DNA of 64,000 nt from Botryllus schlosseri (Eukaryota). This document shows positions 977 through 59,357 of the stretch, in pieces (the first letter of the stretch is position 1; every line of letters starts with the position of its first letter). Position numbers and translations under genes: made by a program. The stretch lies in assembly GCA_051294905.1 (NCBI GenBank), contig CM119371.1, positions 29,514,001-29,578,000 on the forward strand. Reading direction: 5' to 3'. The notes beneath the pieces were generated by a model. That model was not told the DNA's origin and did not search any database. It saw nothing but the letters and a program-made list of their open reading frames with translations.

Positions 977-1039
977 GTATCACAAGGAATGGCTGTTAGG
1001 CGTATTATGCGGTGTATTCAGTGTAACGACTAATTACAG

Positions 1040-4496: not shown

Positions 4497-4565
4497 GTAA
4501 TTAATACCAGTTCATGTGCATTGCGAATTGGGACTTACCAACAATTTGATCGATTGTCACCACAG

Positions 4566-6492: not shown

Positions 6493-6502
6493 TCATCTAA
6501 TA

Positions 6503-8408: not shown

Positions 8409-9255
8409 GTATCAAATATGAGAGGATTTAGCATTATAAATTCTAATTATCCTGCTACTCACTTTATTTGCGAATGGCAGTCAGAGCGAAAATATTCCAA
8501 TCATTCCAATTCCAAATTCAACCCCGATATCGACCCGAATTCATTTGATATAAGCCCAAAAGGAGATATTAATTGGTATTGCTTGCATATGCAAATTTCC
8601 AAATTAAATCCAAAAACTTAATACATTTTATTCTAGACATCGTCAGAGCTCATCTTATGTGTAAGTTTTACCTTATTATGCTTAATGCTCGTATGGTTCG
8701 ATAAACTAGATATTGAGCAGCAATGTTGATGTTTCATCGATAAGTGCGTCAATTTAATACAATGCGTCAATTACAATATGTATTATCTAATATGTAATAT
8801 AGCTGAAACCAGTGACTCCCAAAGTCATCCTTTGATGGAACCCTTTGAAAACGGATAGACACTCTGGACGTCGCAATGAATTCAGAATTTTGCAAATTTT
8901 ATGATAAGCCTACATTATAATGGAAATACACAATCTCTTTTCTGAAAAAGTCCACAACAATGCAGGTATTTCATGTGAATAATGTACTTGTTGATCTTGT
9001 ACACTCTCAAAAACTACGGTACGCTCTCAATGTGGATTGTCCATAATATAGAACATGGAGAGGACCGAAGCCAGTTAAGTTTCGTTCTGTACCATCTCTC
9101 AAGATGCCGAGATGCCAAGAAACCGAAAGGTTATCGAGTCAGCGGTGTGATGTATCTTTCATTGAGTTCATGCCTTTCCTCATACACTTCCCAGACAAGT
9201 TACTTGTCAATTACCTACGAAAAAAAAAACATTTTGTTTCAACAAATAATTCCAG

Positions 9256-9423
9256 GAATTGATATTCCCAAGGACGCATATCTGCCAACCGGCCTACTGA
9301 TTCTCCCGATAAACAGCGTCTTGAATCCATTCCTCTACTCTGACTTTGCTGATCTCATACTGATCTGGGTAAAGGCATATACGGCATGGATTGCGGATTC
9401 ATTCAGGAGAATGCGAGACAGAG
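9256..9423 (+). CDS. GPCR paralogue 1 exon (TM7)
   Basis: ttccag|GA...G|gtgcag; IPKDAYLPTGLLILPINSVLNPFLYSD. Confidence 0.88.
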
Positions 9424-9491
9424 GTGCAGCATGTATAGCTACACAATTGTCACACCCGTTCTAAAACTGTAATGTCGATCCATATAAACAG

Positions 9492-9586
9492 GGGCCGTTT
9501 CGGCAACGCCTCAGATCCAAGTCATTGATCTCGAATTGCACGAGGATGAGGTAAACCAGAAGATAGAAGTAGCGGGAATGAATTGA
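9492..9586 (+). CDS. GPCR paralogue 1 probable terminal exon
   Basis: aaacag|GG GCC GTT TCG GCA...AAT TGA after a 68-bp intron; homologous to 59290-59357. Confidence 0.6.
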
Positions 9587-27382: not shown

Positions 27383-27443
27383 ATGATGTCGTCGATATGC
27401 TCTCTCGGCTTCGCGCTCATAATAGCTGTCGAATGCATACAGG
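27383..27443 (+). CDS. GPCR paralogue 2 exon 1 (signal peptide)
   Basis: MMSSICSLGFALIIAVECIQ-G|gtgagt; its phase-1 end matches the next exon. Confidence 0.7.
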
Positions 27444-27482
27444 GTGAGTCAGCCGAATAAAGCGCCCCTTACAGAAATAACT

Positions 27483-27524
<42 letters not shown>

Positions 27525-30500: not shown

Positions 30501-33500
30501 AGCAGACTTAAAGTCGGTCAATTGTGAAGACAATAACGTACAAGTATAAAACGAAACGTATGATATTAATCAACCAAATAGCCTACATAAGTAGTAAATC
30601 AAGTAAATATTTAAAAGAAGTAGTGACAGATTTCGTAATTGCAATATCCTTCATTGTTACAAACTCAGAAAATGACTACCATGGCTGGCCAAATTGGTAC
30701 ATTATTGAAACTACACTATGTTACCTTGATGTAGAGGTCATAACGCCGGTTGGCATAGCAATCTTACTCATGTAATGAGATGTATATCGACTCGAACACT
30801 ATTGTACTCTCAAACTTGACAAAATGTGACCCCAGAAAGATATGTGGGCTATTTTACTTTTAATAGTATGTATATATATTAAGGCAGTTCAAAATAAAAT
30901 TCCTTAACATTTCACTGGCTACTTGATAAAACTGTTAGGTTAGTTAAAAAAACGCTGCACACGGACTTTGGCTTCATTCCCACCAGCAGAAGCGAGATTT
31001 TTGCAGTAGAAAGTTTTGAATTTATGATTAGAAGAGATGACCGATTTCGAATTGTTGGGCGAGGCCGTTCACAATTCCATTTATGTGCCTTGGAGTCGAC
31101 TTTTATGAAAATACACCAACCAAAACTCTGTCAACAAAAGGAATTCGTGTACCACCTAAAAATAGTACATTGAACGCTCTCTCATTCACGAAATTCATGC
31201 TGGTGACGTCATATTTTGTGATGCGATTGTTGATATACAGTGTTCTTTCCAATTCTCTACTAGTTGCTGACGACTACCCCTGACGAGTGTCAGCCGAAAA
31301 TATTCGGGTTCATTTCAATATGAATATACTATTCAATTTATCATTAAAAAACAAAAAACAAAAATTTCAAACTTTTTCTGCCGACCCCATAAAATTGTTA
31401 GGCTGTCAGTAGAGATGATGCACACCAAATCTGGCTCAATTCCAACCAGTAGCAGCGAACTTATTGCAGTAGAAAAATATCTAATTCCATGATTTTATAA
31501 TAAATAATCAAAGAGTTGGTCACCGTAAATACTATATCATTCAAATCGAAATTTTTCTACTGCAATAACTTCGCTTCTAGTGGTTGGAATTGAGCCAAAT
31601 TTGGTGTACATCATCTTTACTGACAGCCTAACAATTTTATGGGGTCGGCAGATAAATTTCGACATTTTACTTTTTTGTATTACAATCATAAATTCAAAAC
31701 TTTCTACTGCACGAATCTCGCTTCTACTGATTGGAATGGGGCCAAAGTTGGTGTGCAGCGTTTTTTTTTGTCCAACTCAACAATTTTATGAAGTAGCCAG
31801 TGAAATCTGTAGGAAAAGTATTTTTTTAACAGCCCTGATATATATATTTATAAACGGAAGTGTAGTGTATGAAACAGGGGTGTCAAACATACGGCTCACG
31901 GGCAGCATCCGTCTCGCCAGACGATTTCATCCGGCCCGCGAAGCATTTCTGAGTTGATTGAAGCAATCTCATGTTATCCAGTACATTTGTAGCTGATGTT
32001 GAGATTTTTTGCAGGAAATACTTCCATTAAACATTCCTTCAAGACAGCAAATGTCCAGCATATTTATGTTCATAGACCGCATTACAACCACCGCACCAGG
32101 TTACGCCATTGTGGTTTGACTCTAGCGGCCACTCGAGCCGGTAACATCGACACCCGATTTCGTGAAGGCAGAAAGTGCAGTGCACACAGAGTTCAGAGTT
32201 TTATGGAAAGATGGACAAAAAAGTACCTATTCACATAAGCGAAAACGCCAAGGCAGAACCGTTATATGCGGTATACATGAAAAATATATTTGTTACACAA
32301 ATATATAATTCAAACATCTATGGCCGCACTGCTGTGTCACTGCCAATAGATCACCGGACTTAAGAGCAACCCGACTGGCGATTTAATAATAATGAACCAA
32401 TTTCTAACGCTAGCGTTTACAGTTAAACACCTTGTATTCCTCACAACGCATACGCAGGACTAACGCCATATTACGACTAAAGCAAAAGGAGCATAAAAAT
32501 ATGCGAACTTATATCGTCTTCAGCGCCACTATTTTGTCGGTCGTTCACTGTATCCAACCGAACAATAATCGTATCGTGCCAATGCCGTCGTTCGCGCATG
32601 AAAGAGTTGCAAGTTGCTAAAGTAAAACCCCTATGATCTTTGTATATATGCTCGATAATCAAGTATTCAAGTGAAAAGCAAGGGCAGGAGGTGACATTTT
32701 TGAATCGTTTGACTGATGTGAGACGCGAGCGATATGATGGCTGGTGTCCGTCCCGCGACCAATTTGAGTTTGACACCCCTGATCTGAAACTTACTTGGGT
32801 ACGTATTGCGAGTAGATAACACGCATTGCTCCAAAATAGAAGTAGGCCTACTTCATTGCCGACCTCTTCTGATTGAAGAACCTTGTATGAATCACGTTAA
32901 CATGCATTGTATTATTTCATCAGGACGGATATGTAAAAGATTACGATTTAAATGCAGTGACTCAAGTGACTGTCTTTACCTCGGTCACTTTTGCGACGGA
33001 CGGACACATTGCCGGTAAGAGCGCTGGTTGGTTTCCCGGAAGAGCTCAATGCGTTCACACATGTCTGGTGACCAGGGCTGCAGAGCGATAATCCCTCTAA
33101 TTTTTCACGAATCTGCGCGCACTCACCAACTCAAAGAGCGGTCCCCTGGACAAGAGTGCGTCGCAACTAAAAAAAAAACAGGAAAGGTCATCACGTTGAT
33201 TGGACTGCCGAATTACCCACTTTTCTCGTTAATTTTGTGGTGTGGACTAAAAAAGGTCATCACTTCGACTTGTCTTGTGCGCAACTTATTTTCTGTGCGC
33301 AGAGACCGTGTCAGCACTGCGCAATTTCGCACTTGCGCGGCATAGATGGAACAGTGCTGAAGAGTTGCACATATTTTTATGCCCCCCGCCCGACAATCGT
33401 AAGAATAGAAATTGCCACTTATACTCCTACTACTCCCGACTACCCAGTACCCAGACCAATATTTGCTGGACTAACTCTTTCGTACGACTGTAGATGAACG

Positions 33501-36500
33501 GAATCGCTACTCCGGTTCTTAATCGAAACTTTTACTCCGACTCCGACTGCCTAGCTGTGTTTGAAATTACTACGTAATCGGTAGCCGAGGATATCCCGCC
33601 GCAGTTCTGACTCCCAACTATTCCTGAATTATGACAATCATTCAAACCCTTTCCCACGCCCACCTACTGTAACTCAAAAGGGTGCACAACCACATGGACC
33701 TACAGCGGTGCTACAAGGAAAAACACGCTTTGAGATGTTTCCCCCATGACCAATCGTACCTCATCAGAATACCAAACTATCTTTCCTCCCCATTTCCACA
33801 TACAGGAGGTACGTTAACCTATTACAACGCCACTAGGGTCGATTTTCAATCACATAATAATATTAGAACAACAATTATCACGGGGTGTCTCTAAAAAGAC
33901 AAACGGAAATTGAAATGACTGAAGAAAGACTCCAGCAACATTTCGTATTTTTGAGTAGGGTTTCCATACGTCCTCTTTTAAGAGGATTTGTCATCATTCT
34001 CCACTTTTTGTTGAAGTGTCCTTTTATTTTGTCCTGTTATTTTTCAGAATTTTGGTTAAATATATGTCAAAATACGACTGAGATAGGAAATCAGCACTGA
34101 AGTAACGCTCCGGCGGTCATTGCGGGAGCTGAGCCGGAAAGTTGACCTTTTTTTAGTCAACCGACCCCGAAGTGCAAAGAATATAACATTTTTCAGGATT
34201 TTCCTCCGGTATTACAAATTGGAAAATTGCGAGAAGGTGTCCTCTTTTCAGATTTCCAAAATATGGTAACCCTATCTTTGAGGCTTTGCCACGTAATTTG
34301 ATCGACTCAAACTGAATAACAGGTCCGAACACGAATAAGAATCGTATACGATTACCATTAAAAATTGTGACTCCGACTCGGACTCCTGACAGTCCGTTGT
34401 TGGCAAAATTCAGCATGTGTTTAGAAACTGCGAAATGTATGCCGACAGTGTTAGCAACATGTTTCCATGAGTGCAGTAGCTTATCATAATTCGTGTAAAA
34501 TTCCCGGTAAAATACTCCCGTCGCGCTAGATCTGGTTATTTCCCAAAAATGTTTCGAACTAGGTATTCTATCCAGCAGCGCACAGAGTGTCGAAATCGAA
34601 GAAAGAGGCACTGTATCATTTTGGAGAGCCCTTTGAACATTAAAGATTCTTTGAAGCTTTTTGATCAAAAGGATTAACCAGATATATTTGTATTTGAGCG
34701 CTACAATATTAAATCTTCAGAATATTTCTTCATCGTGTCATAAATGATCATACTTTTTAATGTTGTTACCCGTAACCTCACATAATACATTCATGGTAAA
34801 GTTAATAACTTGTTTCAGTACTAAGTTTTATGTGACCAAAGATCTCCACCACTATCTCAGTTGATTTACTAGTCACTGAAAGCAATAACACCAAACCAAA
34901 TACATTAAACGTACCCGTATTGCCAGTCGATCACACCAGATGGTATGAGCCCGTGCGCGATAGTCGTTATAACAAGTTTGATTCGATCCCGAATATTACA
35001 CATACAATTATTGCGTTAATTAGTCGAATGATCCCCGGGCGCGATTGAAGCTATTTCCGATATTGAACTCCCAACTCGAAAAGACTCACCGGACATCGAA
35101 ATCTTACCTCTTGTATTCACTATCTTCCTTAAAATGTACTCGAAGGAGGGAGTAGCAGACCTGGGCCATTTTCTATAAGTGGGATTGCTGGACCAACTGT
35201 TAAGAACCGTTGATGTAAAGTGAAGAGTGACATCCAATTGCATTAAATTAGTAGGCTACTGAGACGTTGTCAGAGTCTCTTTTTGATATCTTGTACAAGT
35301 CGAGATGTGGTCACTGACAGTCATGCTAACACAAAATATATCTTTACCTATAAATTATTATTTTCAGGGATGGTAGCGATGAGTTCACGACAATACCCGC
35401 AGTGGGTTCCGGGTATGGCGCTTGTTATGGACGCGATTCAGCATACAACGGGATGGAACCATGTCGAATAAGGGACAAATATTTTTGCGATGGAAAAACA
35501 ATATGTGTTGAAGGTTGTTTAAATAGTTACTGTTTTAAATGATACATTCTCTTGCTTCAATCACATGGACGTGCTGTGTCCCGGAAACGGGCTAGAGATA
35601 TCATGATCTTACCGTGCCGTGCTGGAGTGAGTTATTCCAGGTGAAAATGCAAATGATGTTTCGGTCCAATGGCGTGAATATGTTTGCATGGATTCCGAGT
35701 AGAGGCCAACAATACTGGTTCCGAATAACTGCTACTTGTGCACCCAACAGTAACCCAAAATCCATTATAACTCTATCCGCAAGTCGTTAAAGATTCATGC
35801 GGGTAGGAATTCTCGCTCCAGACACGTCGCAATAAGTAAAAGTTTCAGTTGAGTGACAATGTCGATAATACACATTTAATAGTCAAATATAATTCTAGTT
35901 TGGGTTTTGTGAGGGAAATGCGATAGGTTGGGGTTGGGTTTGCGGCTTGACTCGTTGACTTAAAATGGAACGCGCCAATGTGTCATTGGAAACAACCCCA
36001 TTTGCGTCATCATAATGATTTACATCTCAAACGATAGAGCCAATACTTTGCAATGCGTCACCTAAATAGACGCGAGCTATATAACTTGAACGAGCTGTCA
36101 ACCAGTTGACTCGTCAGTCAGTTCATCTAACAATAGGTTGATACGGACCCGTGCATAGTGTTTAATTCTGTTATTGTGGTTACATTTTAGAAGTTCATCT
36201 CAAGTTATAGCCTATTAGGCCACCTATTGTAACCGTATAAAAGACGATTAAGTGTTTCATTTCCACAGGAACGGATGAATGCTTGTGTGGGGAGAAAAAT
36301 AAAGGTACTACTTTTTTTTTGAGATTAATGTATCTGTTTATCTGAAGTGCGGAGTAGGCCCGTGTAAATTTTACGCAGCGAACTGTATACTGATCATCAG
36401 TTTATTATGTATCAGACCGTCCGTATCAAATTGGAGACCATTGTTTTAAGTTCGAACTACAGTATCTTCAAGAGTATATCCTTAGGACCATCTTCAAATT

Positions 36501-39500
36501 GATCTTCTTTCACTGGTAGGCTATATTGAAGTCGAAATGTATATTTGGTATAAATTGAACGTATACTATCATTGCTCGGCACTTTATACCTTCTCATCGC
36601 TGCTATATGAAATTCTCGTTCAGATCATCTTGACAACATTTGCTTCCGCTGCTTAAAATCCAGCACATTCATCCCCGTTGCCAAGGTGTGCGATGGAAGG
36701 TTCGATTGTCCCGACCTGACTGACGAATGCCTTTGTCGATCACCTGAGCATCATGCGACTTGTGAACGACTAGGATGGGGTATTGAATAAAGGTTCGGCA
36801 ACTCTTCAGCAGGATGGAATATAAAAATATTTTATATAATCACAGAGGGGCAAGACCCGTATCTGCAATGCGGCGAATCAAACATTTCGAAACGGATCGA
36901 TGTCAACGCAAGGCAGATTTGCGACATGAATTACGTTACGTATGCTCCAATATTGCTCAGTACCATAGTCTGCAGTGTGATGATGGTAAAGGTTATTTCA
37001 TTTACAGGTCGGACTGCAAGGTCGTTGACAATAAAAAGCATTGCATGAGGGCCGGTGATCAAACTAATTTTATTTCACTTCAATTACGGAAATGATACTC
37101 CTGTGTAAAAACCTGTTGCATGTTACCGGTCCTATAGAATCCATCAGCGTTACTCGCAGTCCTACTCCGTAAATTCTGCCATTTATGCATTTTATTTCCG
37201 TTCAGATTATAAGAGTGCACTAGGAACCAAAAGTTGCTATCTAGGCGCAAAACGTAAGTGAATGGTATGATAGACATACTGTCGAGATTACGATTAACTG
37301 ATATCTGTGCCAATTTCGAAAATATGAAATTGTATAATGGTATCATATAAAACTAGAAATTGGAAATAACGCCATCAACATTCCAGTTAACAATTTATGG
37401 TGTCGTTCGTCGCGTACGTCGACAATATACTATCGACTAGGGATGGTGTGAACCTATGAAAGGTCCAGGTTCGTGTGAACGCGAACCTTTTTGAAAGGTT
37501 CTGTGTGAACGCGAACGTGAACCTCATGACGTCACGTGACGTCATATTGCTAATTCCAACCCTACATTTCAATGAAGTGATATCCTAAAACAATGTACAC
37601 GATACCTAACGACGACTCGGGCCGCATGATGCCGCAATGCTGAAGTACATATTGACGTTTTAAACGTCATCAAATGAATCAAGGAAAGCAATCAAATGAT
37701 ATATTAATCCCTTAAAATCAATATCTTCCGTCGCTTTGCCGACAATTTCGACGAGGACTTGCAAGGGAATATAAGCTTACGCCTCAACGGTCCAGGCCAG
37801 ACCGGAAAATGTATTCGGCGTCTGAGTATTGCTACGTTGATATTGAGCAGAGTGTAAAACAGGTTTATACTTGCTACCGACATAAACATATGAAATCAAG
37901 ATTGATCCCGTACGCCAGCTAGATTTTGTTACATCAGGCACCGATGTCAATTTCATTGATTGGTTGAATAAGCATCACTCGCTGACTACCTACACGTATT
38001 GTATTTCGCTCTTGGTGTTGTGTGATTGCGGGTCAAGCTCACAGCAGAGAGTCACTAAATATTCACAAACGGAATGCTGGATATATCGAGCAAACTTTTG
38101 TAAACAAGCAAGTAAAATTTTAGAGATTGTCAAGGTGGATGCTCGTTTAGTGCTGATTTTTTTATGCTGCCAGCGCCATGCATAGAGTGGCCCGCAGTTT
38201 AAATGCAATAAATGGCAACCAAAGATGTTATAATGAAGTGAAAATTGTAATATATGAAAAAGGTTCACAGTGCAGAACCTACCAAGGTTCGTTTGTGAAC
38301 GTGAACCTCTAAATTTCTGAGGTTCACACACAGAACGCGAACGTGAACCTCGCGTTCACACCATCCCTACTATCGACACAATCCAAGCAATATTCAACTC
38401 TGTATTGATCCCGCGGCCCCAAGTCGAAATCAGTGCTTCGTAATCGGGAGAATAACGCGGTGGTCGTAAGCCAATTATCACAAGCGCGATTCCATTGATT
38501 CTACGGCAGGGGTCAGCATTAGAATCCCTGTGAAAGCAAATTCATTGTTCCACGCAGAGTTGAAAACCCAGCTTTCGTCGTTAATGTCCTGTTCCATCTT
38601 GCGATCTTTTCAAGCCAGTCATGTTGAGTCGTTATTGTAACACTCAAAAGAATAAGTTACCATTGAACAAAACAGAGACGGTGCGATAAAAGGACCAAGT
38701 AGATAAATTGATATTTAATAATACCATGTCAGTAGTAATTTCTTTCGTGATGAAAGATACTGCGGACCACAAAATATACGTCTGCGGGCCGCGTGCTGAG
38801 AACCCCTGGTCTAGGTTATTCAGATTTGAAGCGTCTAGGATAGTACAATTGGTGCCCTAACTTTCCGTATACTACTTACCATAATCTTATCAAGGTTAAG
38901 GATAGGAAAACTACGGCTAGGCGCATATATAAAAAGAGAAAAGATTATAGGAAACACTGATTCGAAGCCTCAATCAATTGTTTGGCGAATACACTTCGAA
39001 TTGTATATTTACTGTACTATTTTCCGTTTAGGTTTAGAGAATACTTATCAGTGTTTGTATGATACACACTCAGCATCATATTCCACATGCCTCCGTGACA
39101 AGCTACATTGCAAAGTTTTTCTGGACAACCATAAGTGAGTAGGCATATAAGCTAGAAGTCAATGATTCGTCGGATACTAGAATACTATTACGGTCATGCG
39201 CTTTTGAAATGACTGGAGCCTCTCGGTTGAGGGTGGTAATTTACTGAAGAGTAGGGAGAAATCATAGTTGGAGTGAGGTTATTTACTAGGGATGGTGTGA
39301 ACGTGAGCTTCATGTTCGCGTCCGGTGTGTGAACCTCTGAATTTTGGAGGTTGGGATTTACAAACGAACCTTGGTAGGCTCCGCACTGTGAACCTTCTTC
39401 ATGTATTGCAATTTTGCATGTCATACATTGCATGTCTTTGGTTGAATTGTTTTGCATTTCAACTTCGGGACACTGTCCCAATGGCACTGGCAGCATGAAA

Positions 39501-45500: not shown

Positions 45501-47849
45501 CATCACACATTGTTGAACTGAGATCAGATTTTCACTTTGATGAAGGGGGACTGGCATTATTTAAATTGTCGCAGAAAACACTATGTTTACAGTATACATA
45601 CAGCGAGAATTGTTTGTGCTCGAAAATGAAATATATGTTTTAACTTGTTACTAGGGCTAAATCTCCAGTCATGATTCGACTCAAGTCAGCTTCGAATCAC
45701 AACCATAGGTAGTTTCGGCTTAGTTCTGGCCATTCTATTTGATATTGACACGTTGAGCGACCTTGGGAGACCAAAAGATGTGTGATCACTAATATGGCAC
45801 CTAGGCTCTCTACGATCGGCGTTTTCCTTCAACAAGGTTACACTAAATACTTTTGGCAGTAAACACGCATCGGCTTAACCTGCAGCTTATAACTGAACGC
45901 AACCTGCTTGGCCACGATTTTGCAGTACGCAAATATACGCCTATGTAATCCGTAAACTGATGATGAACTACCGCCGATGCATGCAAATGTCGAGATCAAA
46001 AGACTAATCCTATCCTTCTTATAACGCAGTGCCAAATAAATGAGCCTCGTGATTCCTGTGATACTATATTTGTCGCAAAAGTTAGATCATAAAATCGACC
46101 GTCATATGATAAGTGACAGATGAATTTGACGTGAACTCTGACTTGACTCGAAATCACTTGAAAATGACTCATCGGCTTGACGCTATAGTCAAGAGCTGAA
46201 ATTACATAATGAGTTGGGACCGGCAAACCCATGAATTCGTCACATCCCTGCTTTTCGCGTCTTTCCATCTATCTATTCCACGCTCGTGTACTAATACTCT
46301 GGTTAGATAAAAGGTTAATAGTCGAATCAGTCAAGGAATTATTTTCGCTCAGCCCAACTAATGAGATGTAGAGAAAGACCACTGTATACTTCCCAAATTT
46401 AAACCAACAATCCATGTGCCATGGAAGTCAAGGTGGCAGTACATTCGAATAGCCGATCTCACTATTATATACAGAGCAAGCGCATCAGTCGAGGTGTAAG
46501 TTTTTAGTTTTTCTGACCAATTCATTGTTTTGATTTTGTAGGTATGCGACGGCCACAAGGATTGCGTATCCGGAATTGACGAATGCCAGCCAGGCTGCAT
46601 AGATAGTGCATTTTCCGACGAGAAGTCGTTGATTACAAACAAAGCTGTCCTGGCAGTTGTGTGGGTGATCAGTGAGTGCCCAGGAGTCAAATTCGTGGTC
46701 TGATCATTCACCAATGAACAGGCGCATCGTCGAATACTACAAATTAAGCCTGTCGCTACATAGAAAAGAATATATTGGCCTATTACAATAAGTCATGGAT
46801 TAGGGATGGGTTATTATTCGGACTGGATACCGTGATTAGAGCAGTTAGATCCTAGTCGAGAAATCCTCGAAACGATTTGGGCCGACTCGAAATTGGATTT
46901 GGTTCTGTTGAGTCCAGGGTTTCATCACTGACCATAGATACCGCGAAAATAATATACAGTGCCACAAAATACATCACAGATCAATGCCGATCATTACTAC
47001 GGGTCGTCATAACGATTCGATAACTAGAATCCAATTCGAGTATTATTCAAATAGTTAATTAGACTCTAATCGGAGTAGTTTGTGAAGGTGCCTGGATTTG
47101 AGTCATGACGCATGCACGGTGTACATTGCACTCATCAGATTTTACGCTATGATATCTTACCAAGGTTGAATTTTAGAAGACTTGAGGTGCTGAAAACTAA
47201 AAAAACAAAAGTCGAAAGGTTACATCGACTGTTAATTATATGTATGAAGATGGACCACCAAACATTGTGACATTTATACAATGCAGCGACAAAGCAATTT
47301 AACAGTTAATCTGTAATTTTCAGGTATCATTTCGATTATCGGATGCGCTTCAGTGGTTGCATCGACATTTCATGATGTCGTGAAATCTATCACACGAGCT
47401 GGTGACTCATCGCATTCAAACATCAGCAAATCACTCATCCTGAGCCTATCCATTTCCGATTTACTTGTCGGGGTATCAAGCCTAAAGCGGGTTCTCTGCA
47501 TTGACTGTGTGATATATTGGCGACTAATTACAGATATACACCATTTCCGTGTGCATCAAGGCGATTCAAGTGGAAGGCAGCTATTGCTTCGTTGATATTG
47601 AATGGAGAAGCAGCACCACTTGCTCCGTTTTGGGCGCCTTTTTGGTAATCGGATCAGAACAATCTGTTCTAACGATGGTTTTGATAACAATATATCGTTT
47701 GCATGCTGTTATGAGGTATGGATTGGTATAAAACGTATCTGAACTTTTATTGATTGAAAATTATAGACATATGAATGGAAAAAAAATTAAAAATCACTCA
47801 TACTATTCATCGTATTGCCTATAGATTATCCGTAGTTGCGAGCAGTTGC

Positions 47850-47890
<41 letters not shown>

Positions 47891-48240
47891 AAGTATAGTA
47901 ATAGTGGCATTAGTAGTATGTACCCATGTTGCAACGCCAATACATTACGGTTTAGAATCCCCATACAATCAAGGGTTGGGTTTTATCTATATAAAATGTA
48001 GGTAATAACCTACTCATCACCATTTGATCTGTTTTTAACTGGCCCTGCTATAGTCTATGGGTTTTCTGCTCGGGAAGCATCAATATCATTCCGATGTAAA
48101 ATGATCGTTGATTTACATCAGCGGCGGGCAACTTCTCCATCGGGCGGGCCGCATAGGGGAACATAAACATGAGGCGGGCCGGATTCCTGAATTTATTTTC
48201 TGAATTTAGCAGGGGAACTCCCCCCGTGGGAACGCGCCAC

Positions 48241-48273
<33 letters not shown>

Positions 48274-51200
48274 TCTTTTTCGCCTGCACCGTCGAGATGC
48301 TTTTGACGACGGAGTTGTGATACGGCCCCATGAGGTCATATAGTCTGCCCCCCGTTTTTTTCTCCTCCATGCTATCCGTGATTGCTCAGATCCGTCTATC
48401 CTACCCTGCACTACCGTTTGTACATACTATTCAGAGACGCACACATTCCTGCAGTTGCGAACTATATCTGGATTGGGCGCCCGATTCATGGGCGAGCCCG
48501 AATCGGTGATATGAATGTGATCAAAGATCAGAGTATAATTGGCTCCTTTGCATAAATGAATAAATTTTATCATTGATATTGATGAGTGCATGATCAAGTG
48601 GTTTCTTCGAAAATTTACAGCACGTATAATTATAATTTTGAACATTGATCATGGCATAAGAATATACATTCATGAGCTTATCGCAGATTATCCACTTCAG
48701 GCGGGTTCATTCTTATTAATTACTTTGTTGAAAACTCCTGCAACCCCACGGCCTCGGGCTATTCTAGTGCATCTATGATACTGTATTCTCATAATCAAGA
48801 CACGTACGTAGAGAAACTAAATCGCGCGAAGCGCCCGATTTTTTTATATTTTTAATCCATCTGCCGGAAAATATTTCACTATCTATAAATATTACGAATA
48901 TTCTCAAAAAATCTGAGAATGGCATGGCCCCATTCGCCCCTGGATACGCCAGAGCGGTGAACATCAGTTGTATTGGAACGTCGCTTTCCTAATGTTCATG
49001 CTCGAAATTGTTTGCGCCTAAATACCTGTAGACGGCGACGCGGGCCTCATCATTACGTAAGACCGAAAACTGTCGGCGGGCCGCACAAAATCCCGTCGCG
49101 GGCCGTATGTTGCCCGCCCCTGATTTACATTGTACAAACATCATGAATACCAAACGAACTTTAAGCTGCATATGCACTGTACTTACGATGAGTTTATGGT
49201 GCATTCCTCGCACTGCAGACCAAATAATTAAGACATCGACAAGATGAGATACTAGATAGCTGTATTATTAATAATTCTTCGGAGTGTTTTCAGCAGCTGT
49301 TTATTCAGATACAATCTTTTTCTTTCGATATTAAACAGGTCCAGTTTGTGAGCTACATACTTTCCGTAGGATATAGGTGTCATAAATAATGGAATAATTT
49401 ACAAAACACTGATATGTATGGTAGTCATCCAGCCTTTCCTCTTAATCAGAGAACGACGTAATACCGAAAAATTTTGAACTATACTTGGTACGTAGGAACA
49501 TTTATCTGCACTTTAGCCCGGAGTGCATATCGCGTGCAGAATAATTCGCTTCAAAATAACAGACCATATGGAAACTTGACATGATGCCACTTTGAAGACA
49601 AATTAATTCAATTATATTAGAGTAATTGAGAGAGAAACAAAAATTTGTGTTCTGCGTTCACTTCTTCCATTCATCCTATGCAATCGAATATTTGATGGTT
49701 TTTTCAGACCACTTTCAAGACCCACATTCAAGCGTGCGATTTTAGCAATTGTGATTTCCTGGTTGATTTCGATTGTGATTGGATTGATACCGTTGATTCC
49801 TTCCTTTGAGGATTACTTTCTGTCAGATGTCACGTGAGTGATGATATCCTTTCATGACATTGCGAAGACATCTGTATTGAATATTTAGTCGCCTCTAGCC
49901 TCGGATGAAACCACTATATAGAACAGCGGTTCTCAACCCGCGGCCCGCAGACGCTTATTTTGCGGCCCGCGACATCTTTCATTATGAAAGCAATTTCTAC
50001 TGGCACGGTATTCAATTCAATTCAATTTATTGCTAATGATTTCATCATTTCTATACACCACAAGACTGCGATACAATGAATGATAGGAAGGTTTCGAAAT
50101 GACTTGTAGTAGTCTTCGATATGAGACACCCACCTGGCCTAGGCGATGTAAAATAGAAGGCATGCACACTGAATGAAAAGTAAAGGAAGATAATATAAAA
50201 GGGCATGTGATAAAAAAGGTGACATGTGTAGGAAGGTGAGATCGATATGTCAGGTCGTGGTAAATAGAGGGCTATTGTTACATATTACTTTAGGTACTTA
50301 GCTCTCTTATCGCACCGTCTCCGTTTCGTTTAATTACTTACTCATAAATTTGTTCTGGTTTCGTTCTGTACGCTCGAGTTTAGATTGTTATTGTTTTGAA
50401 TCGATAATCGGGTGGACTCTGGTTCAAGAGACTCCCGCTGCGTAGTAGGCCCTTACACATTTAAAGAGTGTTTCACTCACCGCGAATGGTTTGATAAGAA
50501 ACAAGAACAAGAAGCGGGAGATTTAACGGCGTAAACTTGGTTTTGTAACTCTGCGTGGAACAATGAATTTGCTTTCACATATATAAATGGAAAACCGATG
50601 TGGCATATTTATCGAAGAACAGTTGCCACAACAAAGCGTAGAAGCTTATGATATCACTAGGCCTGGGCAAAATCGAGTACCTGAGTGATTCGATTCTGAA
50701 TCACGTATTATGCTTCGAGTCGAGTCGAGTATTCGAGTATCAGTCATTATGACGTCACAACAAAATGTAATATGTCAAAGTTCAAATACGTACCTTTTGT
50801 GCCACCACAAAGAATATAATGCCTGTTATCCATCGCATTCAAGATACCTTGGTATTTCTTCGACCCTACCGATTTCATTGTACTTTGTGACAATGTTGTG
50901 GGAGGATAATGACTTTGGAAATGTTTTTCCAGTAACTGACGTAGCTTCGTACGATATGTTTCCTATACTGCGATACGGCCAATCAAGGTTTCAAGGCTTC
51001 CACAGTGGAAAATAGTATCGAAACTATAATTCTCGTTGATAAAATAACTTTCAGTAGCGAGGAGCGTATAATTTCAGTACTCGACAAAATCGTCTTTTGC
51101 TACTCGACTCGAATCATTAAAATAATTACTCGATTCAGATTCGAGTACTCGAATCATTGTGCCCAGCCCTAGATATCACGCAGTTTCTTCTGGAGTTATA

Positions 51201-54200: not shown

Positions 54201-57200
54201 AGTTATTACCTTTTAATAGTCGATACGCACTGTTGTCCAGGGGTCAGCGCAGTGAGTTGTTGAGTGTGCGCAGACTCATCAAAACTTAAAGCGAACATTG
54301 TGAGGTTTCTTGGAAACTGTAGGGCCCGTTACTAATAATTAAACATATTCGGGCGGGCGAACCCGTTGGTATGACTTCGTTGCATGATGTTATTTCGTGA
54401 CCCCCTGTCTGCAATATAAAAAAATATAGAATCGCTCAACGGGGATATCGCCCGAAAGGAATATCCCTGTCGCCCAATCGTACTAAACTAAAAGACGCAC
54501 ACGATTTCAGATTGGTATTTCTTCACTGACATATAATTTTTCCCTGCCAGATGGAATTCGTCTTCTGGGGTTCAGATTGCCAAGACAGGAACATTCGGTG
54601 TCAGTCATTTAGGCGCCCATGGACAATTAAACCTATATGTATTTTGAAGGCTATATGTAACGAAGGTTTCGGTGTTAATTTGCTCTGAATACTCATTAAG
54701 GATATGTCCTATCACCACATCATCTACTGCGAAGCCATTTTTCTCCAGCGCCCCCCATACCGCCCCCCTGAGCCCAGCGCCCCCCATATCGCCCCCTGAG
54801 CGTTTCCGCCCCCCTTCAAAATCGCCAGCGCCCCCTGGGGGGCGCTGGGGGCAAGGTTAAGAACCACTGAGTTAGACTATCCAATTAGCTTGGGAAGTTT
54901 AGTAGCTCGCATTTCCTTTTGAGAAGAGTATTCTTGCTTGTGCGGAACCATGTTGGTAAAGGCACAGGTATCCCATTATGTTGCATCTGCACCCTCAATT
55001 GACGTCAATTTTCATGGCATTCTTGATTTTTGGAAAGCCTTCCAATTCCAAACATAGCTCATAGTACATAACATGCTGATCCCCTGCTTGAGACTTTGGC
55101 AGATTTCACAGTAGTATATCCAAAAGTACACCAACCACGCAGCACTTAAGAACCATCGGCCATCGCCTATTAACTACACTAGAAAATGAATATTAACAAA
55201 TCAGCCTATAAGTATATATCACTTTAAAATAGTATTCCGCCACAGCACCATATCCAAGCCTTGCAACAATTAATGAAATTCTATAGAAACAGTTACAATG
55301 AACATGCCTTCGTCATCATAAATGTCTTAAAACCAAAGCTACCAGTTATACAATTCGTCAAATAGACTACCGTATCCAAGACTATGTTTGCGAGAAAGCA
55401 GATTATGATACTACAATGGAGCCGTTCGAACACGACGTTCTTCGCGTCAACTTGAACCGCTGGCACTGTCGAGGAACCGTAACCTGATTGCCAACTAACC
55501 TATCAAATGATAATACTGACCCTTAGCTCGTGAATATACTCTAGACAACGAAAGAAACAAGTGCAATGCGACGAACAGCAACACACGGCGCAACCCGCAC
55601 AACTGCAAATGTCTTGACTTCTTCAACAACAACAACAACTACAACTGTATTCATCCGCACGAGTTTTTGCAGTGATATCAGTGGGTTATCCACCTGACTA
55701 GCAGCTCTTTTGGGACTAAAATGATTGTTTCCGTGTTAAAACGATATTCCATCATCTTAACACAATAAATCTTGGTCAGAATCCACTTGTGGTTTTGACT
55801 TGCGCGCTACTTACCATCTGCGTAGGTATAACCGTGAGATTTACACTGTTCCGGAGCTGGCCTCTTAATTTTCAGGTCAATAGGCAGACTGTAAGGCCGT
55901 GTTTTTAGTAGGCCATGGTTCAGTTTATTTTGAAATTTCATCATTTCAAGACACCACATGACTGCGATACAATGAAAAGATAGTAAGGCGTCGAATCGAC
56001 TTGGAGTAGTCTTTGAGATCAGAGACCCACCTGGACCTAGGCGATGTAAAGAGGAGGCATGCACAGTGCACACTGAATGAAAAGTAAAATAAGTTAATAT
56101 GAAAAGAAAAGCGATAAAATGAGTTGTCATGTGACGGTATTATTGGCGAGATCGATGTCAGGTCGGGGTCCGGTCTAGTAGACGGTTGACGAGTATTTAT
56201 TCAGTAGAAATTGCTAGTCTCCAGACTTGAATGTGTACATGCACATGTTTGACGACAGGGGATAGCCGGCCGGATACTGTTCCATACATTAGGTCTGGCA
56301 TATTTGATATATAGCGATGATCTTTCGCGTCGATCATATGATACTTGCATGATGCGGAAGCGCCTGTGTAGTACTTATGTACTTTTGATACCGAGGTAAA
56401 GAAGTCATTGAAATTCTAGGGGCAGTGACCACAGTAAGCGAAATGCCTTTTCGCTACAGATCCGTAATGGATATGGGACCTACTAATAGATGTATGATTC
56501 TATCGTACTTGAATCTTAAGATTTATCAAATCAGTACATATATTCAGAAACAAGTATATTTTGTCCAATTCAACTTTCCTATATGCAATAGAATCGTAAT
56601 AATGTTGGTGACAATGTATGGGTATGAGGAAGGAGGTGGTGTTCAACCAATTATAGCTCACTTGCAAATACATTGCCTTGATTGCAGCGCCTGTCATAAA
56701 CATAAAACTCTCGAACATTTTATCGTGAACTGTACATCGCAATAATTTCCTCGAACGTTCCCGCGCCGTGCTTGTGTTTATATGAACATTCTATTTCGCC
56801 CCGTGAACCTACTGACTGATCCAAGCATATTGAACTACCTGATAGAATATGTGCTGAGTTGTGATCGATCATCATAATTGATTAATGTCGTGGCGCTCAA
56901 AACCTATCGATGAAAGGCACCGCTCCCTTACTTATCGCAAATTAATAATAAATACACATTGTAGTGAACAGCGATGGTTCTCTCTCTCTCTAGATTCAAC
57001 GACACTGCGATCTTTAAAACGAAAGTAAATCGCAACGACAAGGAGCTCTTACTAAAATGGTTGGGCTTCCTAAACAACGGCAGTATTCAAGAGTCTGTCG
57101 ACAGGTATCTAAAACTATATCCTATGCATTGCGAAAGAGGAAGCTACTAACATTACGATTGATTGCCACGATAGCACGGAATGGGACACATTGAGAAGAC

Positions 57201-59357
57201 TCATTTCTGAAATCAATGAATACAGCCCGATTGTGGCCATTCACGAATTCGGGTATTATTCAAGTCATACAGTCTGCTTGCCAACGTTCTTTCCCGACCG
57301 AAGGAATGACGGATCGTGGGTGTACTCTCTGGTTCTTCTGTTGTTCAATTTCACGGCATTCTTGTTCATGCTGGTGTGCTACATTGCTCTGTACAGGTAT
57401 GAGTTATCACGTAGCTTTGGAACTACAATGCTAATTAGTAAATACACCAAATGTCAAATCAACGAATCTAGGAGGAATCATGAAAACGGGTAGTTGGAAA
57501 GGATAGGCTTGTGGACATTGTATTAATCACTTATTTCCTAGATTAAATTGAGATTATCCGCCAGCGAGAGTTGCAGTATGTTTACGAATCGATATTGATA
57601 TACTTTAAAATTTATTGTTATCAGGGGATCTATATTGTATATGTCTCAGTTTTGCGTGGTAAATTACGTAACCACGTTCCGTTTTGTGCAGACATCTGAT
57701 CTCGACTGTTTAGGAAAATGATACAGCCAAGCTAATGATAACCATATACCCCCGGCGCTAATCCTAGTGTATATAGGTTATGATAGGATATATCTGATGT
57801 AATTAGTACACGTGTCGGGTGTCTCTCTAACTGCACTATAGGCGTATATATAGCGTACTTTATAACGTTTTCGCTTTCGAAGCCTTCAGCATTTTGACTC
57901 GCCTATGAATTTCCTTAACATAATTTGACGCCTCCATACCCCGAGTCGTTAATTACACCGAATGCATTCCACAGAATAGCTAACGACATGAGGATTCTGG
58001 AATCATCAACGGCTCGCGAGAAACGGGACAAACAAAGTGTCGCAATGCAACGCAAACTTACTAGAATTCTCGCGTCCGATTTTTTGTGCTGGATGCCTGT
58101 CTGTATCATGGGTTTCTTGCAATTAGCAGGTATCAAACATATGCGGTTTTTATTTATTCATAAATCGTAATCATTCTTTTACTCATTTGAGTTTGGAATA
58201 CAAGTCCGTATCAAGGTACTGAATTAATATAGAAACATTCGAAATTCAAGTTTATGCCCAACATCGACCAGAGGCGTCAGTTCAGAACAGTGGTTCTCGA
58301 AATTTTTAAAAATAGTTACGAAGAGGTCCCTCGGCAATTTTAAACGACTCGCGGCCTCTTACAAAATCAGCTTAAACATGACTTTTGATCAATGTGACAG
58401 ATGTAGCCTATTTTTTTTCGACCAGCCCGGCTATGTATGACCCGGTTGAGCTTTTGAGAACGCAACTTTATTATCGTGAATCATATTCAACCGGTTCTAA
58501 TTGGCATTCAAGGCGCGAAAACGGTGGTCTTGGCCCTCATAGGGCGATCAACGTAAGATCAGAACCCTCTTGAATGTCCCGCGAGTAATTTCATCACCAC
58601 CCTTTTTAAATACGATTCGCAAACGGTATTTTTGCGATTCACGAACGAAGCGAAATAGCTAACGGCTAACGCAAGTCTCATTAATTTTCTTGGCTCAGTA
58701 AGCACAAACCAGTGTGCAGTTATATTCTCGTCGCGTGAAACGCGAAGTTGTTTAATGTTAAGGAATCAATCAATATTACCAATTACTTCGTTGAAGCAAG
58801 ATGTCATCTTGTCCAGCCTATCTCCCTAAACTTGAAATGCAAACCATAAACTAAAGATAGCACTTTCTTGATATCGAGTGTAACTTCAATTGCACCTGCC
58901 GGACATCATCGAGAATTTATACCAATGCGTAAGATGTCACATGTAGACTATCAGTTCTATCCTTCTACATGCCAGATGCCACGTTCAATGAACTTCCAAA
59001 ACAGCTTAATTGTCGATTAAAAACAAACAAAACATTATACTTCAACAAATAATTCCAGGAGTTGATATACCGAAGGACGCCTACCTGCCGACCGGCCTGC
59101 TAATTCTCCCGATAAACAGCGCTCTAAATCCATTCCTTTACTCTGACTATGTCGATCTCATACTAAGTCGCGCAAAGACATGCATGACACGGACAACGTA
59201 TTCCTTACGTGGAATCAAAGACAGAGGTAACATACGAAAGTCACGACTTTCAAATCTGCTCTAAAAAAGCAAGCTTGTTTCATTCACAGGGTCCGTTTCG
59301 GCGTCAACTCAAACCGCAGACCAGACGCTAGAATTGAAAGTTATTGATGTCAACTGA
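27383..59357 (+). CDS. LDLa-module-containing, LRR-less GRL101/LGR-like class A GPCR, paralogue 2 (19 exons, about 729 aa)
   Basis: Exons 27383-27443, 32924-33014, 35368-35513, 36269-36304, 36624-36779, 36846-36939, 37008-37054, 39032-39134, 43868-43951, 44835-44895, 46542-46671, 47324-47472, 47534-47715, 49708-49833, 56994-57104, 57175-57396, 57975-58129, 59059-59226, 59290-59357 join in phase (2190 nt). The 7TM exons are secure. The middle ectodomain exons are tentative and small exons may be missed. Confidence 0.85.
27650..29520 (-). mobile_element. Decayed hATm-like transposase 3' part and flank
   Basis: Minus-strand relics SDPRFMTAQEFV and ASLLQVVEDHRQSFQKFEKST resemble the hATm C-terminus (recalled, not searched); boundaries approximate. 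Confidence 0.6.
27987..28248. mobile_element. hAT-type MITE with agta/tact subrepeats
   Basis: cagaggtggtca / tgaccacctctg; perfect TSD atcatttg; inverted copy at 40292-40557. Confidence 0.9.
29575..30525 (+). mobile_element. Second, inverted hATm-like 3' fragment
   Basis: WMRLPFSEWHRYPHFMSAQEFV...CLLEVLE; reverse-complement similarity to about 27650-28690. Confidence 0.55.
30883..31834. mobile_element. Fold-back element, Kolobok-like ends (TTAA|GG)
   Basis: About 150-bp outer inverted arms plus a second inner pair of inverted arms (about 31350-31490 / 31545-31680). Confidence 0.7.
31875..32781. mobile_element. hAT-type non-autonomous element
   Basis: TIR caggggtgtcaaac / gtttgacacccctg; TSD gtatgaaa/atctgaaa; interior similar to about 41420-41720. 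Confidence 0.8.
32924..33014 (+). CDS. GPCR paralogue 2 exon (LDLa module 1)
   Basis: catcag|GA...CG|gtaaga; RICKRLRFKCSDSSDCLYLGHFCDGRTHC. Confidence 0.85.
33956..34274. mobile_element. hAT-type MITE (tagggttaccata family)
   Basis: tagggtttccata / tatggtaacccta; TSD tttttgag/tctttgag. Confidence 0.85.
35368..35513 (+). CDS. GPCR paralogue 2 exon (end of LDLa 1, LDLa-like 2)
   Basis: ttttcag|G GAT GGT AGC GAT GAG (DGSDE)...PCRIRDKYFCDGKTICVE G|gt. Confidence 0.85.
36269..36304 (+). CDS. GPCR paralogue 2 micro-exon
   Basis: ttccacag|GA ACG GAT GAA TGC...AAA G|gtacta; GTDECLCGEKNK completes the module. Confidence 0.75.
36624..36779 (+). CDS. GPCR paralogue 2 exon (LDLa module)
   Basis: CFRCLKSSTFIPVAKVCDGRFDCPDLTDECLC. 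Confidence 0.88.
36846..36939 (+). CDS. GPCR paralogue 2 ectodomain exon
   Basis: GQDPYLQCGESNISKRIDVNARQICDMNYV, flanked by 66- and 68-bp GT-AG introns. Confidence 0.65.
37008..37054 (+). CDS. GPCR paralogue 2 ectodomain exon
   Basis: tttacag|G TCG GAC TGC...; SDCKVVDNKKHCMRA. Confidence 0.6.
37438..38369. mobile_element. hAT-type MITE (tagggatggtgtgaac family), full length
   Basis: Perfect TIR and perfect 8-bp TSD ctatcgac. Confidence 0.93.
38507..38808. mobile_element. hAT-type MITE; inverted relative at about 49924-50580
   Basis: caggggtcagca / tgctgagaacccctg; shared interior (gagacggtgcgataa, tgtgaaagcaaattcattgttccacgcagag). Confidence 0.7.
39032..39134 (+). CDS. GPCR paralogue 2 ectodomain exon
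   Basis: tttag|GT...AA|gtgagt; LENTYQCLYDTHSASYSTCLRDKLHCKVFLDNH. Confidence 0.65.
39287..40712. mobile_element. Old tagggatggtgtgaac MITE interrupted by two younger MITEs (from 39661 and 40292-40557)
   Basis: Colinear with 5523-6492 once the inserts are removed; 40292-40557 has perfect TSD gttataat. Confidence 0.75.
43204..43776. mobile_element. piggyBac-like non-autonomous element
   Basis: TIR ccctagaccactaaggtgggg / ccccaccttagttggctaggg; degenerate TTAA flanks; internal ttgacccca repeats. Confidence 0.65.
43868..43951 (+). CDS. GPCR paralogue 2 ectodomain exon
   Basis: atag|G...CA|gtaagt; FLEIYYNSSSRWITCTADFENQGFCQI. Confidence 0.6.
44338..44606 (+). mobile_element. tRNA-derived SINE with (CT)n tail
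   Basis: A box TAGTGTAACGG at 44346-44356, B box GGTTCGATCCC at 44391-44401, non-tRNA body, (CT)n tail; 3' half repeated at 48241-48388. Confidence 0.85.
44835..44895 (+). CDS. GPCR paralogue 2 ectodomain exon
   Basis: ttttacag|A...CAG|gtaaaa; YQCTNASYQEVLANKDCKIQ. Confidence 0.6.
46542..46671 (+). CDS. GPCR paralogue 2 exon (last LDLa, start of TM1)
   Basis: tttgtag|GTA...A|gtgagt; VCDGHKDCVSGIDEC...SLITNKAVLAVVWVI. Confidence 0.9.
47324..47472 (+). CDS. GPCR paralogue 2 exon (TM1-TM2)
   Basis: IISIIGCASVV...KSLILSLSISDLLVG; 149 bp like 828-976. Confidence 0.9.
47534..47715 (+). CDS. GPCR paralogue 2 exon (TM2-TM3)
   Basis: WRSSTTCSVLGAFLVIGSEQSVLTMVLITIYRL. Confidence 0.92.
47850..47890. 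repeat. (AGT)n microsatellite
   Basis: About 13 perfect AGT units. Confidence 0.95.
48119..49122. mobile_element. hAT-type element containing a truncated SINE
   Basis: cagcggcgggcaac / gttgcccgcccctg; perfect TSD atttacat. Confidence 0.88.
48241..48388 (-). mobile_element. 5'-truncated copy of the tRNA-SINE
   Basis: Reverse complement of about 44460-44606, including the (GA)n tail. Confidence 0.85.
49708..49833 (+). CDS. GPCR paralogue 2 exon (TM4)
   Basis: PLSRPTFKRAILAIVISWLISIVIGLIPLIPSFEDYF. Confidence 0.9.
50010..50261 (-). mobile_element. LINE 3' UTR fragment
   Basis: Aligns with 23435-23670; (TTGAA)n tail. Confidence 0.85.
50658..51171. mobile_element. hAT-type MITE (tagggctgggca family)
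   Basis: Colinear with 2636-3149; perfect TSD gatatcac. Confidence 0.92.
51695..55917 (-). mobile_element. P-superfamily (THAP9/Galileo-like) DNA transposon with decayed transposase
   Basis: Perfect 59-bp TIRs starting CATGG, 7-bp TSD gttcagt; relics VMVDEMYLQK and YLFYDNVHLVQNLRNNLLN on the minus strand. Confidence 0.9.
53370..54869. mobile_element. hAT-type element nested in the P element
   Basis: TIR cagtggttcttaacct / aggttaagaaccactg; perfect TSD agttagac; gcgccccc subrepeats; contains MITE 54116-54300. Confidence 0.9.
55918..56435 (-). mobile_element. LINE 3' fragment (end of ORF2 plus 3' UTR)
   Basis: Aligns with 23435-23927; its tail continues at 51681-51694 on the other side of the P element. 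Confidence 0.88.
56994..57104 (+). CDS. GPCR paralogue 2 exon (ECL2)
   Basis: FNDTAIFKTKVNRNDKELLLKWLGFLNNGS. Confidence 0.88.
57175..57396 (+). CDS. GPCR paralogue 2 exon (ECL2-TM5)
   Basis: TEWDTLRRL...EFGYYSSHTVCLPTFFP...YSLVLLLFNFTAFLFMLVCYIALYR. Confidence 0.92.
57975..58129 (+). CDS. GPCR paralogue 2 exon (ICL3-TM6)
   Basis: MQRKLTRILASDFLCWMPVCIMGFLQLA. Confidence 0.92.
59059..59226 (+). CDS. GPCR paralogue 2 exon (TM7)
   Basis: IPKDAYLPTGLLILPINSALNPFLYSD; ends G|gtaaca. Confidence 0.9.
59290..59357 (+). CDS. GPCR paralogue 2 probable terminal exon
   Basis: ttcacag|GG TCC GTT TCG...AAC TGA after a 63-bp intron. Confidence 0.65.

Follow-up and report, generated by a model that had tools for sequence, protein, structure and literature searches.

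A Botryllus schlosseri LDLa receptor without leucine-rich repeats retains an RXFP-type hinge and carries an enlarged second extracellular loop

How does a receptor with an LGR-type transmembrane core work when its ectodomain holds several LDLa modules and no leucine-rich repeats (LRRs)? The question is raised by a gene in a 64,000-nucleotide stretch of the Botryllus schlosseri genome (GenBank assembly GCA_051294905.1, contig CM119371.1, positions 29,514,001 to 29,578,000, forward strand; hereafter the window, in whose numbering positions are given). The receptor gene occupies 27383-59357 (+) and has 19 exons and 18 introns, running from ATG 27383 to TGA 59357; all 18 introns are bounded by AG/GT, and the 19-exon reading frame contains no internal stops. 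The 19 GT-AG exons joining in phase that an initial annotation of the window had proposed were reproduced, but its length of about 729 residues was not: our model encodes 717 residues, with variants of 728 (including an unverified 33-nucleotide exon, 45291-45323) and 744 (using an exon-9 acceptor at 38951). The protein leads from a signal peptide through four LDLa modules and a degenerate cysteine-rich middle to an RXFP-type hinge and a seven-transmembrane (7TM) domain. The + strand carries the four cysteine motifs singled out by the annotation at 32992, 35486, 36689 and 46545; a six-frame search of the window gives no other such match.

The gene is real and spliced. Four data sets were mapped onto positions 27376-47375 (exons 13-19 lie beyond this stretch): X1 and X3, which are contig sets of presumed RNA origin, and X7 and X11, raw-read RNA runs sampled to ~6% and 13%. 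Two contigs are clearly spliced, X1 contig 2 (exon 2 to exon 3) and X3 contig 10 (exons 3 and 5). In the latter (1029 nucleotides, depth 4.73) the exon 3 and exon 5 pieces are 36 nucleotides apart, the length of exon 4, and the depths predicted for three bins from exons 4, 6, 7 and 8 (0.936, 0.908 and 1.808) match those observed in all three (0.94, 0.91 and 1.81); leaving out exon 8 lowers the prediction for the third bin to 1.47. The contig continues for 594 nucleotides past exon 5, which the model would carry through exon 11 and 110 nucleotides into exon 12. Depth in the exon 11/12-region bins was 1.37 and 0.50, compared with predictions of 0.92 and 0.37, which fits this path without proving it. 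The contigs thus back exons 2-8, while the junctions from LDLa to transmembrane (TM) exons, which the initial annotation had wanted confirmed by RNA, were not directly seen: e1-e2 and e8 to e12 are absent among the joins listed. Two contigs depart from the model. X1 contig 2 extends 63 nucleotides into intron 1, and X1 contig 5 is gap-free over 38948-39136, including 84 nucleotides upstream of exon 9. Both overruns may be unspliced RNA; for contig 5, unspliced RNA and a longer form of exon 9 are indistinguishable. The X7 and X11 runs, at the sampling given above, both had zero depth in the unique exon bins 35380-37380 and 45385-47375.

The absence of LRRs, part of the original proposal, held up in three kinds of search. 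A single exon (46542-46671) runs from the last LDLa motif across the hinge into the start of TM1, with 19 residues between LDLa motif and TM1, in line with the spacing of about 20 given before. Out of 193 + strand open reading frames (ORFs) of at least 30 residues in 27426-46700, the 139 of at least 36 residues were scanned with Pfam. LRR families matched 0/139 at E ≤ 0.1, and the only matches were to LDLa plus four weak unrelated ones. Over 419 stop-free stretches no score of a single-repeat LRR matrix exceeded 11.4, while 18/24 held-out genuine LRR pieces scored at least 14.4. Because minus-strand noise reached 17.2, one repeat could hide from this matrix; an array could not. Using tblastn, the LRR regions of relatives matched TM exons only. 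No LRR-coding exon was found between the LDLa and TM exons by Pfam, matrix or tblastn.

A TM6-TM7 profile retrieved 464 proteins at E ≤ 0.001, and a second search added members from Ciona and Clavelina. Among 46 long family proteins scanned with Pfam, most had Ldl_recept_a and 7tm_1 without LRR. The closest relatives are Styela clava proteins (P0005 with 35% identity over 750 columns), and alignments of the receptor to single RefSeq proteins extend over its length. Exon-level matches in the PDB were to RXFP1, LGR4, LHCGR, FSHR and TSHR, and the best match of the family profile was RXFP1 (E 9e-56). In an unrooted tree of 42 sequences and 291 columns, built with the insert in the second extracellular loop (ECL2) removed, the receptor and its tandem paralog were placed among proteins of Styela within an LRR-less clade of 29 members from Styela, Ciona and Clavelina (ultrafast bootstrap, UFBoot, 100), apart from RXFP1/2 and from arthropod, echinoderm, hemichordate and coral receptors. 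The 14 sequences of PMC2396169 and Lymnaea GRL101 were not among the sequences of this tree. Membership in an ascidian expansion of LRR-less LDLa receptors, as the initial annotation proposed, was supported. We are close to certain that the gene encodes an intact class A GPCR (G protein-coupled receptor) whose 7TM is of the LGR/RXFP type, belonging to the ascidian LDLRR-GPCRs. It is one more member of a family already described in 2008, for which the parts of PMC2396169 available list 14 Ciona receptors with RXFP-like TM domains, 1-10 LDLa modules, no LRR and no known ligand, with expressed sequence tags mostly from blood. Many tunicate members are labelled 'GRL101-like' in databases. One family member, P0243, is labelled in NCBI as a protein of a Planctomycetota metagenome-assembled genome, which is probably contamination.

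What has this family kept of the RXFP switch? In RXFP1, I396/S397 of the hinge restrains and L402/L403 transmits activation (bioRxiv 2022.01.22.477343, in excerpt). The alignment of RXFP1 (7tmw) to the family profile is gap-free from the hinge into TM1 and places I396/S397 at F305/S306 and L402/L403 at L311/I312. In the relatives these columns hold F (81/95), S (88/96), M or L (99/100) and I (91/100). An RXFP-type hinge is retained in the receptor, a feature that the initial annotation overlooked. The available portion of a 2026 RXFP1 preprint adds D6.44, W6.48, N7.45, Q1.35 and W7.36 to the relay and describes ECL2 as a transducer. The receptor keeps D623 (D6.44), W627 (W6.48), N659 (N7.45) and NPxxY, and also D2.50 and R3.50.

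The long ECL2 noted before is real, and it is family-wide among the LRR-less relatives, which share an insertion of ~65-70 residues (~67 positions relative to RXFP1, profile 251-319 vs. chain 551-554). We measured the spacing of the disulfide cysteines, both found by pattern, in 132 sequences (131 relatives and the model), with isoforms counted separately and with proteins under 300 residues and pattern failures dropped untallied. The distribution is bimodal, with 129-157 residues in 94 relatives, 67-91 in 36 and 110 in one; the model has 144. With LRR labels assigned by hand from Pfam scans, LRRs occur in 0/72 of the long-ECL2 relatives with Pfam data (of 94), and all 19 LRR-labelled rows are short. 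Another 16 short rows have no LRR; 14 of these have no LDLa motif by pattern and, many being short, are probably fragments, and two have LDLa (P0041 and P0143). The link between LRR absence and a long ECL2 is strong but not absolute, because P0041 and P0143 lack the insert. P0143 (Crassostrea virginica XP_022336076.1) has LDLa and a 7TM, no Pfam LRR and no ECL2 insert, and lies outside the tunicate clade; either LRRs were lost independently here or the model is at fault.

The insertion was recognized in the Botryllus model by a profile built from relatives alone (score in Table 1); its sequence is weakly conserved across the family. AlphaFold models of the inserts of Styela P0007 (pLDDT 90.9) and of a distant fragment, P0136 (84.4), share one order of elements: a short helix, two strands, two helices and a closing strand. 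In these two relatives the insert is thus predicted to be a small α/β domain. Neither Atlas, where all structural look-alikes of the insert had TM-scores ≤0.45, nor PDB structure searches with the P0136 model, in which TM helices alone matched and the insert was not folded alone, gave evidence of a new fold. Atlas returned no usable feature match for exon 16 or for the P0007 insert, and a homolog search with exon 16 found no matches. A complex prediction for two LDLa modules and the P0007 insert, with the alignment not used, scored 0.03. ECL2 also holds a motif, C-φ-P-φ, that is common to the LGR family (bioRxiv 2022.01.22.477343, excerpt). Here it reads C548-L549-P550-T551, with the first three positions kept and the fourth polar; that position is L or F in 19/19 LRR-bearing rows and R, K, T, N, D or G in 87/94 long-ECL2 relatives. 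The passages available of the main text of the 2008 Ciona paper (PMC2396169) mention neither hinge nor ECL2 insertion, and in 3/4 of the family-like models shown from its supplement 1 the insertion is missing. Since current Ciona models carry it, the older ones probably skipped the insertion exons. In the literature searched, including passages of PMC4079206, PMC6267866 and PMC11863921 and with most subscription papers outside its coverage, we found no description of the insertion.

Has the receptor been diversifying, as the initial annotation supposed? Comparison with the tandem paralog, which lies upstream and is 75% identical in amino acids, did not bear this out. Over 369 codons of the 7TM region, synonymous divergence (dS) was 0.61 and the ratio of nonsynonymous to synonymous divergence (dN/dS) was 0.23, with 0.27 in the ECL2 insert, 0.18 in TM2-TM4 and 0.05 in TM6-TM7; this is one gene pair, whose power is low, and the window does not reach the paralog's ectodomain. 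Measured between the two tandem copies, the insert evolves under purifying selection, and the pair shows duplication and loss, without positive selection on ECL2. All seven paralog exons compared (12-18) are equal in length to those of the receptor and AG/GT-flanked. With its in-frame stop, the paralog is probably a pseudogene or a null allele. The window opens with 60 bases that look like the last part of paralog exon 11 and may bear a further lesion.

We favour the explanation that the LDLa modules capture the ligand, that hinge and ECL2 relay the signal and that the insert serves as a restraint, and we give it as a whole a probability of roughly 0.55; the mechanism of receptor action itself stands at about even odds. 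The ligand would be large and extracellular, most likely a protein or a lipoprotein bearing basic patches, and would bind LDLa modules presumably stabilized by Ca2+. Lacking an LRR solenoid, the last LDLa module would rest directly on the hinge (F305/S306, L311/I312). Its movement on ligand binding could shift the hinge and C548-L549-P550 of ECL2, and this shift would operate the D6.44/W6.48/N7.45 switch and turn on the G protein. The ~70-residue ECL2 mini-domain would be the structural partner of the ectodomain, taking over the restraint exerted by LRRs.

Several points weigh against this explanation. Asn1.50 is replaced by Cys332, and by Cys in the paralog, whereas all 99 relatives with a residue there have Asn. 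The RXFP1 pair Q1.35/W7.36 is absent, its positions mapping by residue count to Val317 and Pro650. The position of RXFP1 L566 is Thr551 here, and it is hydrophobic in 7/94 long-ECL2 relatives vs. 19/19 LRR-bearing rows; the equivalent ECL2 residues are dispensable for activation of TSHR and LHCGR (2026 RXFP1 preprint, in part). Two LRR-less LDLa proteins have no insert, one inside the clade (P0041) and one outside (the oyster P0143), and P0051 has half of it. The predicted structures are those of relatives, the receptor itself not being among them. Scored as a whole with the family LDLa profile, the cysteine-rich middle was equalled by 105/500 shuffles. Finally, the literature searched, with most subscription papers beyond its coverage, holds no ligand, signalling or structure report for any family member, in agreement with the orphan status assigned before.

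Five other accounts deserve weighing. The best of them, and the nearest to how the initial annotation read ECL2, makes it a small-molecule or peptide sensor whose ligand would sit at the ECL2 mini-domain or in a 7TM pocket that the altered ECL2 motif would open, with LDLa modules for folding, trafficking or anchoring. The annotation's view that ligand recognition must rely on ECL2 goes further than the data. The insert is extracellular, is predicted to be ordered in two relatives and varies much in sequence across the family; 87/94 long-ECL2 relatives have a polar or charged residue at the L566 position, and a small molecule activates RXFP1 without F564/L566 (2026 RXFP1 preprint, in part). Purifying selection on the insert (dN/dS 0.27), the retained hinge residues and an LDLa number that varies widely among relatives, as that of a binding array would, weigh against it, and we consider the sensor unlikely. 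Ranked just behind it, and also unlikely, is a constitutively active receptor in which LRR loss removed autoinhibition, control passing to expression or to inhibitory LDLa binding. LRR-less RXFP1 has high basal activity that depends on F564 and L402/L403 (bioRxiv 2022.01.22.477343, in excerpt), equivalents of which are kept (L549, L311/I312), and with Ser609 at 6.30 the ionic lock of RXFP1 is missing. Against this account, D6.44 and the hinge pair that inhibits (F305/S306) are retained, and the L566 position is polar; L566D held the RXFP1 7TM inactive in simulation (same source, excerpt).

A non-signalling or decaying copy (a scavenger, a decoy or a gene en route to loss) is improbable. The loss of Asn1.50, the degenerate middle modules, the stop in the neighbouring copy and the zero depth in both raw-read runs would suit it, but 19 exons are open, TM6-TM7 and TM2-TM4 show constraint when compared with the paralog, D2.50, R3.50, W6.48 and NPxxY are intact, and spliced contigs come from two studies. 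Much less probable again is a receptor for ascidian relaxin/insulin-like peptides bound through LDLa and linker in place of LRRs. The family profile's best match is RXFP1 and Ciona has three INSL/relaxin-like genes (PMC2396169, in part), but relaxin binds RXFP1 mainly through LRRs (bioRxiv 2022.01.22.477343 and the 2026 preprint, both in part), the receptor does not group with RXFP1/2, and urochordates are reported to have lost receptors of the RXFP/LGR3 type (PMC11863921, in part). Least probable of all is a wrong model, with LDLa and TM exons in separate genes or LRR exons missed: the unlisted joins and the contig overruns into introns 1 and 8 would allow it, but exon 11 holds the LDLa motif, the hinge and TM1 together, LRR signal is absent, single RefSeq proteins align lengthwise, and the model would carry the 594 nucleotides of X3 contig 10 through exon 11 into exon 12, in bins whose depth is at or above the prediction.

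Any wider interest would lie in the family more than in the single gene: the family is a natural LRR deletion of an RXFP-like receptor. Human RXFP1 without LRRs switches on; LDLRR-GPCRs must therefore be constitutively active or restrained in another way, and the shared ECL2 domain with its altered motif is a concrete, testable candidate for that restraint, and a way into the question of how LGR hinges function without LRRs. Tentatively, and with clearly less confidence than for the explanation itself, we suggest that tunicate LDLRR-GPCRs are LGRs that traded the LRR solenoid for a new ~70-residue α/β ECL2 domain, which together with the membrane-proximal LDLa module would act on the old hinge as a new switch of restraint and release, with the ECL2 motif rewired as C-φ-P-R/K/T, in an expanded, tandemly duplicating set of blood-cell sensors for large proteins. 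Should the ECL2 domain prove to be the switch, interest at the family level would be higher than for the gene itself.

The ectodomain was examined with a family LDLa profile made from 294 LDLa modules of relatives. The four modules of the spliced model scored 35.7, 15.1, 43.7 and 12.4 bits, in accordance with the about four LDLa-like units first described; Pfam LDLa on single exons gave E values of 8e-5, 0.008 and 0.18, each under the cut-off. The middle region (113 residues, 9 cysteines) scored 1.4 bits; in alignments it faces LDLa modules that are canonical in Styela P0005, P0153 and P0162. Judging from this alignment it is probably worn-down LDLa, but the region does not rise above shuffles. 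We rejected a rule by which the cysteine preceding the LDLa 'DG' would pair with an additional cysteine following 'DE', since it failed across relatives.

The features are listed in Table 1. Exon 8 (37206-37253) replaces a cysteine-rich ORF, 37938-38099, that gave a 755-residue model and was rejected as a high-copy repeat with contig depth above 12,000 and a donor score of -4.4. Reading X1 contig 2 as exon 1 misplaced onto intron 1 was also rejected (30 mismatches needed, 14 seen). Symmetric exon candidates in introns 1, 9, 10 and 14 found no support. One of them, at 45291-45323 (+) in intron 10, is a 33-nucleotide AG/GT-flanked phase 0-0 stretch with two cysteine codons that may serve the last LDLa module as an additional or alternative exon.

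Table 1. Exons of the receptor gene and of its tandem paralog in the window, with the evidence for each.
Feature	Position	Strand	Content and evidence
Exon 1	27383..27443	+	Signal-peptide-like residues 1-20; ATG, hydropathy peak 2.04, gtgagt donor
Exon 1 to exon 2 join			Inferred from phase fit
Exon 2	32924..33014	+	LDLa module 1, first half; Ldl_recept_a (Pfam) at E 0.008, under the curated cut-off
Exon 2-exon 3 splice			Contained in X1 contig 2
Exon 3	35368..35513	+	End of LDLa 1, most of LDLa 2; X1 contig 2, X3 contig 10
Exon 4 (36 nt)	36269..36304	+	End of LDLa 2; 36-nt contig gap, bin depth
Exon 5	36624..36779	+	LDLa module 3, best preserved; Pfam E 7.7e-5; 43.7 bits; contig pieces
Exon 6	36846..36939	+	Degenerate Cys-rich; AG/GT, phase, bin depth
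Exon 7	37008..37054	+	Degenerate Cys-rich; AG/GT, phase, bin depth
Exon 8 (48 nt)	37206..37253	+	Degenerate Cys-rich; located via depth shortfall
Exon 9	39032..39134	+	Cys-rich; acceptor score 7.8 vs. 0.9 for weaker alternative 38951
Exon 10	44835..44895	+	First half of last LDLa module; AG/GT, phase 2-0; aligns with relatives' last module
Exon 11	46542..46671	+	Final part of last LDLa (46545-46586), then RXFP-type hinge (46599-46643) and TM1 start; one open exon
Exon 12	47324..47472	+	TM1-TM2; Cys332 instead of Asn1.50; same-length paralog exon
Exon 13	47534..47715	+	TM2-ECL1-TM3; top PDB matches LHCGR E 2.2e-5, FSHR, TSHR; same-length paralog exon
Exon 14	49708..49833	+	TM4 and start of ECL2 insertion; 7tm_1 E 0.05; same-length paralog exon
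Exon 15	56994..57104	+	ECL2 insertion; insert profile 26.3 bits, E 7e-10; same-length paralog exon
Exon 16	57175..57396	+	Insertion end, C548-L549-P550-T551 (57275-57286), TM5; top PDB match RXFP1 7tmw E 0.067
Exon 17	57975..58129	+	Third intracellular loop (ICL3)-TM6, D6.44, W6.48, P6.50; 7tm_1 E 0.06
Exon 18	59059..59226	+	TM7, N7.45, NPxxY; 71-73% identity to relatives P0001, P0002
Exon 19	59290..59357	+	C-terminal tail and stop; AG, phase 1, TGA; tail alike in P0001 and paralog
Tandem paralog, exons 12-19	828..9586	+	5' part off window; in-frame TAG 4573-4575

Other sequences in the window appear to be mobile or repetitive. Intron 14 contains broken ORFs at 52299-53406 (-), which resemble the remnant of a THAP/P-element-type transposase, and ORFs at 23659-24802 (-) resemble the end of a reverse transcriptase of the long interspersed element (LINE) type; Pfam gave no match at E ≤ 0.01 on 8 transposon-like ORFs that include these. 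High-copy repeats at 30044-31377, 37381-38714, 39382-40048 and 44051-45384 were covered to very high depth by each of the four RNA runs. Positions 44380-44422 drew thousands of partial read matches and may be a short interspersed element (SINE) or a tRNA-derived element.

How does the receptor compare with known systems? The Ciona LDLRR-GPCRs (Kamesh, Aradhyam and Manoj 2008) have the same RXFP-like 7TM and tandem N-terminal LDLa modules, no LRR and the same orphan standing. Current Ciona models and RefSeq proteins of Styela clava and Clavelina lepadiformis (for example XP_039271686 and XP_039250278) share the receptor's hinge, ECL2 insertion and clade. Compared with its Styela relatives, in which the corresponding modules are canonical, the receptor has lost the LDLa signatures of its 113-residue middle, and it differs from LDLRR-GPCR relatives by Cys in place of Asn1.50. 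GRL101-type receptors (type C2 LGRs; Lymnaea, echinoderm, hemichordate), which are also orphans (PMC4079206, PMC11863921, in part), likewise carry several LDLa modules in front of a 7TM of LGR type; they stand outside the tunicate clade and keep LRRs between LDLa and hinge, whereas the receptor has none. ECL2 spacing in LRR-bearing rows (n=19) is 67-91 residues, against 144 here. With RXFP1/RXFP2 (LGR7/8, type C1 LGRs) the receptor has in common the 7TM, the gapless passage from hinge to TM1, C-φ-P in ECL2 and D6.44/W6.48/N7.45. Where those receptors combine one LDLa module with relaxin-binding LRRs, it has four LDLa modules and no LRR, an ECL2 insertion of ~67 positions, Thr at the L566 position and no Q1.35/W7.36 pair.

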